A stretch of 64,000 bases of DNA from Gammaproteobacteria bacterium (GTDB taxonomy: Bacteria; Pseudomonadota; Gammaproteobacteria; Eutrophobiales; Eutrophobiaceae), in contig JACVQI010000001.1 in the NCBI GenBank assembly GCA_015661095.1, positions 41 through 64,040 on the forward strand. Direction: 5' to 3'. The first letter of the stretch is position 1. Each line of letters begins with the position of its first letter. The translations under genes and the position numbers were made by a program. The notes under the pieces were generated by a model. That model ran no database searches, had not been told where the DNA came from, and saw only the letters and a list, made by a program, of their open reading frames with translations. Below, in pieces: positions 23,604 through 25,637 of this stretch.

Positions 23604-25637
23604 TCATTTGGTTTGTTGCTGTTTCATTTGTTTATCCAGTTCCAGCATGCGTGGAATGGCCGGATTCTTCGGATCCGGCCATTCCTGAAGTGAAAGTTTA
23701 AAATATTGCATGGCATTTACTGAATCACCCTTGCGCTGCAGCATGATGGCTTTGATCAGGGAGTAGTTGGCAGAATCCTCAACTAACATTGCCTCATCAC
23801 GTATACGTTCAGCTTTGGCTAACAATGATGAAATAAAATCAAAATCGGGATTCGGATACGACAACAGGATATTGGCGGCTGTAATCAGGCCATAATAACC
23901 CCGACACACTCTCAACAATTCCGCCGCATGTTCCCTGGGATGATCAAAATAATACAAATGAATGGCAATACGGCAGTTGTCGGCTATCAGGAGTTTGTGA
24001 TACATGATTTCCCACGAATCATAAAATTTATCCATGGCCAGCAGATTTTCGAAAAATTCCTTAACCAGGGAGTTTTCCACCACCACTCTCTGACCTTTCT
24101 GCAAGGACCTGTCCACCCTGTGATAAATACCAAAGTCGCGGACACCATATAAATCCGGAATACTGGCAATAAAATATATCGGCCGTTGCTGGGATTCGAT
24201 GAACTCACTCATTATTTTATGGTTGGAATCCTTATCATTTATAATCGGGTCTACCAGGCGGTTTTTAAACACCAATCCCACAACACTATAAATTGTTACA
24301 TCGGGCCTCACCTTTTCTATCAGGTTAAAATACCCCAGTGTGCCGACATCCAGATCACCGACAGCGAAAAATATTGCATCTTTTTCCAGGGTATTCAGTA
24401 TTGTCATTGCATAGCTCTCTCCCAACTTGTCATTGGCCCGATAGTTATAGGGAATATTTGTCATGAGTCCCGTGATCAAAAGTACACCGGTGAATACCAT
24501 ATTGATCGTTTGTTGCGATGAATGGATCCTGAAGTTACTCATTATGAATACGGCTGCTTCCCGAACACCCAGAACCGTCCATAGCGCCAGGATCGAGTAG
24601 GAGACCAGCGGGTATACCTTGAAAATATTCTGATAAAGAGGCGAAAAGAAAAACCCCAGCATCATGGCTAAAAGTACGGTACTGCCGAGATATGCCAATA
24701 CCAGCCCGATACAGATGTTTTTCCGCCAGTGATACCACTGTCGCACGAAGCCAACCAGGGCCAGCACCCCGCCCAGTGGCCCGAATTGCCGCCCACTTTC
24801 CTGCATGGCATACACCACGTACTGTAACTTGTCGGCATAATTTGCGCCTATCTGGTGATCTGCCGCTGCATAGCCCTGCCTGCTGATCATGTACCAGACA
24901 TCCTGCCAGGAATCCAGGGGCCCGTAAAAACTGATCGCCGTATCCATTTGTGACCGCACCACCATCCAGACGTAGGGACACAAGCCCAGCAGCAGAAAAA
25001 TCAACCCATTTGGAGTATTTCTTAATATCAACCTGATTTTCGGCCAGAGCACGGCCAGCACTGAAGGGGTTGAAAGTATCAGTAAGGGCCAATGGTTGCA
25101 TAAACCGAGGCCATAGATAAAGAACATCAAGGGCAGGAACTTGCCGGATGTTTTTCCCTCGTTCCTGACGTAATGGATCGCGCCCCAAAGTAATACCAGA
25201 TAGATGCATGTATTAAGGGTATAAACCTCGGCAATTATCGCCTGCGACCAGTAGGTTTTCGAAACGCCCAGACACAGAGCAACAGCGATGGCCAGGGTTC
25301 TGTTATTGAATAACCCCAGGGCAATGTAATATAAAACGATGCAGCTTACTGCCCCAAAAAAACCACTCAAGGCATGCACCCTGAAAGCAACGCTGCCGAT
25401 AGGGATTTGGGTGGCCAGATGACCAAGCCAGGTGAATAAAGGGTACCCAGGAGAATGGGCAACGCCATTGAAATACGCTGCCAAGATGAACATACCATCG
25501 TCTTCCAGGACGACGGTTCGGGGAGCGCTAACTAGATAGATAACATAAACCGCAAAAAATATTAATGCACAGACAAACCATTCGTGGCTTGATTTTTTCC
25601 GGTTTAAGGAGATTGGCGTAGATGGAATTTCCTGCAT
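23604..25637 (-). CDS. DUF2723-family polytopic membrane protein (TMEM260-like predicted GT-C glycosyltransferase) with a C-terminal TPR-like region
   Basis: 677 aa ORF. The N-terminal motif VVLEDDGMFILAAYFNGVAHSPGYPLF matches the DUF2723/TMEM260 signature. It has more than 10 transmembrane segments and a soluble helical C-terminal domain. Confidence 0.6.
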   Translation of the reverse strand: MQEIPSTPISLNRKKSSHEWFVCALIFFAVYVIYLVSAPRTVVLEDDGMFILAAYFNGVAHSPGYPLFTWLGHLATQIPIGSVAFRVHALSGFFGAVSCIVLYYIALGLFNNRTLAIAVALCLGVSKTYWSQAIIAEVYTLNTCIYLVLLWGAIHYVRNEGKTSGKFLPLMFFIYGLGLCNHWPLLILSTPSVLAVLWPKIRLILRNTPNGLIFLLLGLCPYVWMVVRSQMDTAISFYGPLDSWQDVWYMISRQGYAAADHQIGANYADKLQYVVYAMQESGRQFGPLGGVLALVGFVRQWYHWRKNICIGLVLAYLGSTVLLAMMLGFFFSPLYQNIFKVYPLVSYSILALWTVLGVREAAVFIMSNFRIHSSQQTINMVFTGVLLITGLMTNIPYNYRANDKLGESYAMTILNTLEKDAIFFAVGDLDVGTLGYFNLIEKVRPDVTIYSVVGLVFKNRLVDPIINDKDSNHKIMSEFIESQQRPIYFIASIPDLYGVRDFGIYHRVDRSLQKGQRVVVENSLVKEFFENLLAMDKFYDSWEIMYHKLLIADNCRIAIHLYYFDHPREHAAELLRVCRGYYGLITAANILLSYPNPDFDFISSLLAKAERIRDEAMLVEDSANYSLIKAIMLQRKGDSVNAMQYFKLSLQEWPDPKNPAIPRMLELDKQMKQQQTK

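Follow-up and report, generated by a model that had tools for sequence, protein, structure and literature searches.

A TMEM260-like GT117 gene between pilR and pilA of a gammaproteobacterium encodes a candidate pilin O-glycosyltransferase

The open reading frame (ORF) at 23604-25637 (-) in a 64-kb stretch of gammaproteobacterial DNA (contig JACVQI010000001.1; the full 64-kb stretch is referred to as the window, and all coordinates are in window numbering) has an ATG start and encodes a 677-aa protein, identified by Pfam, by homology to human TMEM260, by AlphaFold2 (AF2) modelling and by Foldseek as a TMEM260-like (DUF2723) GT-C glycosyltransferase of family GT117. The gene lies between pilR and the major pilin gene pilA, and we infer, at a probability of roughly 0.6, that its product is a pilin O-glycosyltransferase, perhaps an O-mannosyltransferase, whose acceptor is most likely PilA. 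That human TMEM260 is a protein O-mannosyltransferase has been known only since 2023, and a congenital disorder in humans results from its mutation. Hundreds of bacterial relatives exist, and the statement of a preliminary description of this DNA that the substrates of bacterial DUF2723 proteins are undescribed agrees with the literature: no characterised bacterial GT117/DUF2723 member was found in the literature searched, which left out most subscription journals. Within that literature, the function given here is the first to be proposed for the TMEM260-like family in bacteria.

Membership of the family was evident from several independent comparisons. Pfam PF11028 (TMEM260-like, formerly DUF2723) matched the protein strongly (E 1.8e-23, 83.7 bits against a cut-off of 24.2) across residues 46-197, corresponding to profile positions 1-170 of 179, and the N-terminal motif LEDDGMFILAAYFNGVAHSPGYPLF at residues 44-68 is indeed the DUF2723 hallmark that had been recognised from the letters of the sequence. 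No other Pfam family was matched at E up to 0.01, and the Wzy_C domain of O-antigen ligases and PglL/TfpO-type enzymes was likewise not found in that search. Homology to the solved human enzyme (9rql_A) was direct: phmmer with the target protein alone gave E 5.1e-30, with residues 25-451 aligned to human residues 31-464, and a profile built from 34 homologs matched human TMEM260 at E 1.5e-51. A hypothetical protein from a Gammaproteobacteria metagenome-assembled genome has the same sequence (100% identity). A 224-aa ORF contained within the gene in another frame of the same strand (24535-25209) was dismissed as a chance occurrence; homologs conserve the 677-aa frame.

The alignment to human TMEM260 is ungapped at the N-terminus, where D46 corresponds to human D52 and H61 to H67, and continues with R253 at human R264, Y256 at Y267 and D428, within VGDL, at D441, within RGDL. 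The first four of these residues are invariant in the 34 homologs and D428 is conserved in at least 90% of them. In the human enzyme the mannose of dolichyl-phosphate mannose (Dol-P-Man) is held by D52, H67, Y267 and R355 and its phosphate by R264; the catalytic base is D441, which belongs to the luminal Rossmann-like domain, and the TPR domain suffices for binding of an extended acceptor peptide (2026 cryo-EM preprint). Mutation of the donor-binding or catalytic residues abolishes activity, D52A being inactive, and D52 is located in the first luminal loop (PMC10214176). The AF2 model of the target (pLDDT 90.9, pTM 0.89) comprises a membrane GT-C core at approximately residues 17-398, an alpha/beta (Rossmann-like) domain at approximately 405-520 with strands within 422-519, and TPR-like helical repeats at approximately 523-676. 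Its Foldseek neighbours were the GT-C enzymes PglB, ArnT, ALG12, Pmt4 and DPY19 (E 6e-7 to 3e-4), plus TPR proteins, and the target is predicted from this model to adopt a GT-C fold. D46 and D47 lie in the loop directly after the first transmembrane (TM) helix, with three lysine or arginine residues in the N-terminal tail and one in the loop; since this charge bias fits and D46 aligns without gaps to D52 of the human luminal loop, both residues are predicted to face the periplasm, as had been anticipated for the conserved acidic residues of the enzyme. The hydropathy caller used for TM helices was crude, splitting or merging helices, and only its loop charges were used, together with AF2 secondary structure.

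The gene is part of a single same-direction (-) gene string that extends across window positions 19.9-32.4 kb. This string includes pilS (30788..32398), encoding the sensor kinase of the pilin two-component system, and pilR (29462..30787), encoding its sigma54-dependent response regulator, both assigned by sequence and by the domains of their orthologs (6TM_PilS, HisKA and HATPase_c; Response_reg, Sigma54_activat and HTH_8). Next come a GT2-GtrA fusion gene, which starts 81 nt after the pilR stop codon, an LtaS-GDPD fusion gene and the target gene, with pilA (22872..23330, -) 273 nt downstream of the latter. The pilA product, the proposed acceptor, is a type IVa major pilin (Pfam Pilin 1.5e-17 and N_methyl 1.7e-09) of 152 aa as pre-pilin and 145 aa in mature form. 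The 273-nt spacer carries TGGCATCATAGCTGCT at 23443-23428 (-), a GG-N10-GC sigma54-type element located 98 nt before the pilA ATG and assigned by motif match and position as the -24/-12 element of pilA (TGGCAT-N5-CTGCT, 23428..23443, -); the placement of the gene directly upstream of pilA and its promoter in the preliminary description was accurate. The pattern TGGCAYN5YTGCW has a single match in the window, with 0.44 expected and approximately 1 in 3 shuffles also giving a match, and the element is regarded as meaningful because of its position and not because of match count; PilR, encoded upstream, is a sigma54 activator judged by the domains of its orthologs. An intrinsic terminator hairpin after pilA (22823..22853, -) has a 12-bp stem whose core consists of G and C only (GGCCGC/GCGGCC), and a U-tract follows it (dG -19.8 kcal/mol; z -5.0, none of 200 shuffles reaching this stability); this obvious terminator was missed by the sigma70/terminator scan and was checked by folding instead. 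With pilB (T2SSE and MshEN domains), pilC (T2SSF) and pilD (prepilin peptidase) at 43365-47294 (+), approximately 20 kb from pilA, the window contains the complete core gene set for type IV pili.

The case for pilin as the acceptor comes from comparative analysis of related loci. A scan of one genome per species gave 79 loci, and look-ups of closer metagenomic homologs added more (all designated by L numbers); six-frame ORFs of each locus with 10-kb flanks were searched with the window proteins, and PilA homologs with a prepilin motif were counted. A PilA homolog was found in 22 of 83 related loci, in each case no more than 4 kb from the DUF2723 gene; none lay at 4-10 kb, the part of the flanks into which an even spread would put approximately 60% of pilins. 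The linkage spans Gammaproteobacteria, Burkholderiales (Betaproteobacteria) and Magnetococcales and at least six gene orders. The order pilS-pilR-(GT2GtrA)-...-DUF2723-pilA is found in the window and in L002, L005, L019, L080-83, L089 and L091, whilst ten Burkholderiales loci have pilA-GT2-(x)-GT2GtrA-DUF2723. The remaining arrangements are pilA-GTC629-DUF2723 (L048, Thiohalocapsa), where GTC629 denotes a membrane protein described below, pilA-DUF2723 with the genes 111 nt apart (L062), divergent pilA and DUF2723 (L030 of Magnetococcales, and L073) and DUF2723-x-pilA-GTC629 (L004). Survival of the linkage through such rearrangement argues for a functional tie beyond shared ancestry, and this synteny strengthens the earlier proposal of pilin as the target; the gene neighbourhood makes PilA the probable substrate. 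In a rough neighbour-joining tree every pilin-linked member fell within proteobacterial clades, and a large clade of members from Latescibacterota, Nitrospirales, Vicinamibacterales and sponge symbionts contained no pilin-linked member. As the linkage is confined to proteobacterial clades, pilin appears to be the client of a sub-family and not of all bacterial GT117 enzymes; a protein acceptor is taken as the family default because the human TPR domain binds extended peptide.

The place of the gene beside pilA might reflect common PilS-PilR regulation and not a pilin substrate, in which case the main clients would be other envelope proteins such as minor pilins, type II secretion pseudopilins or periplasmic and outer-membrane proteins. 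Co-transcription with pilS-pilR is possible, given the 81-nt gap and the lack of any strong terminator listed from pilR to the DUF2723 gene, and many family members have no pilin nearby. Tandem arrays of three to four DUF2723 paralogs also occur in non-pilin contexts, in L013 (4451-11030), L043 (9902-18297) and L054 (5176-14261); their hosts belong to Pseudohongiellaceae, sponge-associated Gammaproteobacteria and Porisulfidus, and they suggest diversification towards several acceptors and hence diverse clients. However, it is to the major-pilin gene itself that the DUF2723 gene is linked, in several gene orders, and operon-like pilA-DUF2723 pairs without pilSR are found in L062, L048 and the Burkholderiales loci. 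No pseudopilin or minor-pilin cluster stands beside the gene in the window, and the type II secretion substrate that the preliminary description had offered as an alternative to pilin found no specific support. Clients other than the major pilin are accordingly considered unlikely to be the principal ones.

A probable source for the donor of a pilin O-glycosyltransferase is encoded in the same gene string. The 366-aa GT2-GtrA fusion protein (28280..29380, -) is a probable polyprenyl-phosphate-hexose synthase, with Pfam matches to Glycos_transf_2 (7.8e-37) and GtrA_DPMS_TM (6.6e-17). It matched 5mlz, the P. furiosus Dol-P-Man synthase, from end to end (E 1.5e-57, residues 4-358 against 24-372), a match that takes in both the catalytic domain and the four-helix membrane domain and in which the DADLQH motif is common to both proteins; GtrB and ArnC matched at only approximately 1e-10, and the best NCBIfam match was PgfS. 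A GT2-GtrA homolog lay directly upstream of the DUF2723 gene, at a distance of no more than 300 bp, in 28 of 83 loci, with a short ORF weakly matching GT2-GtrA in 10 further loci, and because the homologs adjoin in those 28 loci the two genes are regarded as a conserved core. These matches suggest a polyprenyl-phosphate-mannose donor, and mannose as the sugar transferred by the DUF2723 enzyme is an evenly balanced prediction from sequence. Considerably firmer is the prediction, drawn from the conserved residues and the nearby GT2-GtrA gene, that the target is an active inner-membrane GT117 enzyme fed by the GT2-GtrA donor, which is very probable.

An operon of the Burkholderiales locus L008 (7081-15438) consists of genes for pilA, a GT2, GT2-GtrA, DUF2723, a GT87-family membrane protein and two methyltransferases. 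GT87 is a polyprenyl-phosphate-mannose-dependent family, and this neighbour fits a mannose pathway. The operon as a whole looks suited to building a longer mannose glycan, perhaps a methylated one, on pilin. The C-terminal half of its pilA frame (7081-7611) is Arg-rich and Ser/Thr-poor, unlike the pilins of its neighbours, suggesting an assembly frameshift or a pseudogene.

Between the GT2-GtrA gene and the target gene lies a gene for an 876-aa fusion of a membrane-anchored LtaS/MdoB-type sulfatase-fold domain and a GDPD domain (25647..28277, -). Pfam placed Sulfatase at residues 251-526 (7.2e-37) and GDPD at the C-terminus (2e-25), and hydrophobic segments before residue 176 form the N-terminal membrane anchor. 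The best PDB matches were VP1736 of Vibrio (4e-29), the Listeria lipoteichoic acid (LTA) primase (2.2e-19) and a GDPD (6e-12), and the NCBIfam models for LtaS and phosphoglycerol transferase I matched below threshold; by analogy the protein is probably a phosphoglycerol-transfer or editing enzyme. The tight coupling described earlier holds in the window, where 9 nt (TAA gataatgca ATG) separate this gene from the target and 2 nt separate it from the GT2-GtrA gene, but the coupling to LtaS-GDPD does not extend to all close relatives, since the gene is present in L081, L082/83 and L003 and missing from L080, L005 and L019. LtaS-GDPD is thus a variable, optional module. The sulfatase-GDPD fusion architecture is conserved in many phyla, including members from Gammaproteobacteria, Desulfobacterales, Acidobacteria, Planctomycetota and Polyangiales. 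In Desulfotignum balticum (L085, 6287-10739) a 35%-identical LtaS-GDPD gene follows a gene for a PMT_2-family GT-C and is divergent from two pilin genes, a repetition of the theme of GT-C, LtaS-GDPD and pilin with a different GT-C family. This was the one of four distant LtaS-GDPD contexts to combine pilins and a GT-C, the other three having unrelated neighbours, and a link of the fusion to pilins is only suggestive. A metagenome scan with LtaS-GDPD alone returned one close locus, L084, and was uninformative.

The combination of a GT2, a GtrA module and a GT-C enzyme is the classic three-component layout for glycan decoration, and an alternative is that the enzyme decorates a glycan, whether an O-antigen-like polysaccharide, the lipopolysaccharide core or a glycolipid, in the manner of GtrC, GacL or ArnT. 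LtaS-GDPD would then add glycerol phosphate as GacH does, completing the analogy with the published GacI/GacL/GacH system, and pilA would merely be embedded in a surface-glycan locus. Downstream of the gene string, on the same strand at 1-20 kb and also in relatives, methyltransferase and GT4 genes and an ABC-transporter-type glycan cluster follow the second GT2 gene of the pilA region, and locus L090 combines DUF2723 with an acyltransferase, a GT2, a methyltransferase and Sulfatase-GDPD and has no pilin. Against a glycan acceptor, the sole characterised member of the family is a protein O-mannosyltransferase whose TPR domain binds peptide, and D441, the base acting on the protein acceptor, is kept as D428. 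The gene is moreover on the pilR side of pilA, so that pilA and its terminator separate it from the glycan cluster, and in the Burkholderiales loci, where pilA-GT2-GT2GtrA-DUF2723 is retained, the ORFs checked included no adjacent Wzm/Wzt cluster. Decoration of a glycan is on this evidence improbable, though not negligibly so.

The glycan cluster itself occupies window positions 1-15800 and includes several GT4s, methyltransferases and asparagine synthase. It encodes Wzm (8506-9324), Wzt with a Wzt_C domain (9317-11062), a UDP-GlcNAc 2-epimerase (7011-8120) and a heparinase II/III-like protein (3149-5515). The window between 10 and 14 kb has 32-35% GC against approximately 46-50% elsewhere, which suggests that this stretch was horizontally acquired. 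In the same string of glycan genes, a 713-aa fusion of a zinc-type alcohol dehydrogenase and a Gfo/Idh/MocA oxidoreductase (15836-17977, -) probably acts in sugar modification.

A second candidate for pilin modification, overlooked in the preliminary description, is encoded directly downstream of pilA and may compete or cooperate with the DUF2723 enzyme. This protein, GTC629 (20865..22754, -), is a 629-aa polytopic membrane protein with a C-terminal TPR, identified by position, motifs and TPR matches in PDB, and is TfpW-like in position and layout. No Pfam family matched its membrane part, which could not be shown to be GT-C; it has an invariant D39-D40 after TM1 and an invariant E359-H-R-N-Y-L364 motif, and its AF2 model has a pLDDT of 88.2. 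The family is large, with 3696 matches among the candidates scored, and some homologs are labelled 'protein O-mannosyl-transferase' by JGI. A homolog is encoded downstream of pilA in L002, L004, L005, L019, L048, L080-83 and L089. That GTC629 and the DUF2723 protein are paralogs was considered and rejected, as hhalign aligned the TPR stretch only, with 4% probability. GTC629 is paired with a second GT2 of 285 aa with C-terminal TM helices (19982..20839, -; Glycos_transf_2 2.1e-27, NCBIfam AglJ 3.5e-31 and Dol-P-hexose transferase 7.8e-22), which is generically similar to ArnC, DPMS and GtrB in PDB (approximately 1e-13 to 1e-10) and, judging by these matches, probably makes a different lipid-linked sugar for GTC629.

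Pilin glycosylation might accordingly be started by GTC629 with the second GT2, the DUF2723 enzyme then extending or branching the glycan or modifying another site with another sugar. GTC629 sits at the tfpW position and shares with TfpW a length of approximately 630 aa, a DD after TM1 and a periplasmic TPR; many loci have both GTC629 and DUF2723 around pilA, and two distinct GT2 polyprenyl-phosphate transferases are present in the window. The Burkholderiales loci together with L062, L030 and L073 nevertheless have DUF2723 beside pilA and no GTC629 homolog, and the DUF2723 gene is thus linked to pilA independently of GTC629. D428 and the TPR module of the DUF2723 enzyme also fit an initiating protein transferase, whereas the membrane domain of GTC629 has the uncertain assignment given above. 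This combined reading, with initiation by GTC629 and only a secondary or separate role for the DUF2723 enzyme, is judged quite unlikely.

Several points weigh against the DUF2723 enzyme as a pilin O-mannosyltransferase. The acceptor is assigned from gene neighbourhood alone, and a pilin within 10 kb is lacking in approximately 40% of proteobacterial-clade members and in every member from another phylum, some of the contigs being truncated. GTC629 with its own GT2 adjoins pilA downstream and could be the true or initiating pilin enzyme, and the same-strand ABC-transporter-type glycan cluster that follows makes a glycan acceptor possible. The sugar specificity of GT2 polyprenyl-phosphate transferases is not reliably readable from sequence. 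One mannose contact is uncertain, as the pairwise alignment sets human R355, in TM helix 10, against V341, one residue off the conserved K/R at K340 (family consensus R). Finally, the GGx3T core of the human sequon is not conserved among DUF2723-linked pilins.

Under the favoured interpretation of the enzyme as a pilin O-glycosyltransferase, the GT2-GtrA protein would take a hexose, likely mannose, from a nucleotide sugar and attach it to undecaprenyl phosphate on the cytoplasmic side of the membrane. The lipid-linked sugar would then reach the periplasmic face, conceivably with help from the GtrA-type domain, and be bound by the DUF2723 enzyme via D46, H61, R253 and Y256, whilst the periplasmic TPR and Rossmann-like domains would hold an extended stretch of the acceptor and D428 would activate a Ser/Thr hydroxyl. 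The acceptor, most likely PilA, would be modified while anchored in the inner membrane, prior to pilus assembly. Where present, LtaS-GDPD probably uses phosphatidylglycerol to add glycerol phosphate to the sugar or to the pilin, or else trims the decoration, a trimming or editing role being proposed for its GDPD domain.

A candidate site for this modification is a conserved G-G-T67 before the first beta-strand of the pilin, near the position of S63 and S69 in Neisseria PilE. The DUF2723-linked pilins are type IVa pilins with 15-25% Ser/Thr (18% in the mature window pilin), and G-[GSA]-T-x-x-G-K-Y-V before the first beta-strand is common to most of them. In mature numbering the window pilin has G65-G66-T67-S68 preceded by T62-T63. 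In Neisseria PilE the glycan is attached to S63, and S69 bears phospho-forms, phosphoglycerol added by PptB among them. The two pilins are presumed here to be in the same numbering register, and the region T62-S68 is a reasonable place to look for a modification, as a lead only. The human TMEM260 sequon is Px6Px3Px2GGx3T, and residues 81-91 of the mature window pilin comprise a five-glycine run followed by A-P-I-T, in which G84-G85-A-P-I-T89 matches the GGx3T core; this match was rejected as evidence, since it is not conserved in other linked pilins and is probably due to chance.

The closest characterised relative of the target is human TMEM260 (CAZy GT117), the endoplasmic reticulum O-mannosyltransferase for IPT domains. 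The two belong to the same Pfam family, are homologous over approximately 430 residues and have the same layout of GT-C core, Rossmann-like and TPR domains with D52, H67, R264, Y267 and D441 conserved; a lipid-phosphate-mannose synthase homolog as donor source is present in the window. In contrast to the human enzyme, the target is bacterial and predicted to be in the inner membrane facing the periplasm, its donor lipid would be undecaprenyl and not dolichyl phosphate, and the gene for the probable donor synthase belongs to the same string, two genes upstream, the sugar being a tentative assignment from that synthase. No IPT-domain substrates are found here, and the human sequon is not shared by the linked pilins. 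The P. aeruginosa enzyme TfpW, a GT-C pilin arabinofuranosyltransferase encoded next to pilA, has a periplasmic C-terminal TPR and glycosylates Ser/Thr of pilin from a polyprenyl-phosphate sugar. Compared with its published description, the target is likewise a polytopic GT-C-type protein whose predicted first periplasmic loop contains an acidic motif, with a C-terminal TPR and a gene beside pilA. On the comparisons made it seems to belong to a different protein family, and it differs further in being encoded upstream of pilA, between pilR and pilA, and in a donor pathway that is DPMS-like and not the DprE1/E2-type synthesis of D-Araf; GTC629, compared with TfpW in the same way, occupies the tfpW position and is unrelated to DUF2723 by hhalign.

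As in the three-component systems (GtrA/GtrB/GtrC, CsbB/GtcA/YfhO and GacI/GacL), of which S. mutans PgfS with PgfM1/PgfM2 is a protein-glycosylating example, a GT2 synthase, a GtrA module and a GT-C are encoded together, and an LtaS-type sulfatase-fold enzyme stands beside glycosylation genes as does streptococcal GacH. Unlike in those systems, a single protein here combines GT2 and GtrA, an organisation shared with the archaeal Dol-P-Man synthase, GT117 is the family of the GT-C, an extra GDPD domain is present in the LtaS-type enzyme and the setting is a Gram-negative pilin locus; polysaccharides or teichoic acids are the acceptors in most of the known systems. Neisseria PilE is, like the window pilin, of type IVa and of that same sequence class; its alpha-beta loop region is modified with a sugar as well as a phosphoglycerol-type group, and T62, T63, T67 and S68 of the window pilin, in the presumed PilE register, also lie in this region. 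Neisseria, unlike the window, uses an en-bloc O-oligosaccharyltransferase of the Wzy_C type (PglL/PglO) with undecaprenyl-diphosphate-linked glycans (Und-PP-glycans), plus PptA/PptB, with pgl/ppt-type genes unlinked to pilE, and a Pfam search of the target did not find those families.

The class of mechanism, GT-C pilin glycosylation fed by a lipid-phosphate sugar, is known; what is new is the family of the enzyme, the fusion in its DPMS-type donor synthase, the location of the gene between pilR and pilA, and LtaS-GDPD as an optional partner. Pilus glycosylation affects phage resistance, adhesion and immune recognition, and a pilin-directed GT117 enzyme would, if confirmed, be the third enzyme family for type IV pilus glycosylation after PglL/TfpO and TfpW. 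The locus supplies a concrete client in PilA, a donor pathway and point mutants (D46A, D428A), through which the bacterial branch of the family could become experimentally tractable. More speculatively, and with doubt prevailing, the proteobacterial GT117 enzymes may be dedicated pilin O-mannosyltransferases, possibly forerunners of metazoan TMEM260, that build a mannose (and glycerol-phosphate) pilus decoration together with GT2-GtrA, with or without LtaS-GDPD, and pilA may be the hub of a swappable transferase island. Were this true, teichoic-acid-like chemistry would occur on a Gram-negative protein fibre, and unrelated TPR-bearing membrane transferases would diversify the pilus surface, for example against pilus-specific phages.

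Examination of the sequences around pilA in the related loci indicated that the gene sits in a variable island of membrane transferases, and the window pilin may carry two or more different modifications. The recurrence of variable membrane enzymes around pilA suggests modification islands more diverse than the Pseudomonas and Neisseria models. Pfam-less proteins of 575-660 aa with 8-12 predicted TM segments flank pilins in L019 (12104-15949), L003 (two copies, 17264-18997 and 20020-21825) and L082 (8204-9931); they have an N-terminal 'G(G/L)P..PNPQS' and are interrelated (blastp 1e-6 to 1e-96) and unrelated to DUF2723 and GTC629. A TPR-sulfotransferase is encoded between two pilA copies in L002 (14527-16386), and a TPR-GT41 (OGT-like) protein beside the DUF2723 gene in L003 (12373-14478, -). 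Upstream of pilA in L089 (4941-6923) and L091 (7931-9931) are genes for polytopic proteins of approximately 660 aa that match Spermine_synth, located between pilR and DUF2723 or between two DUF2723 copies.

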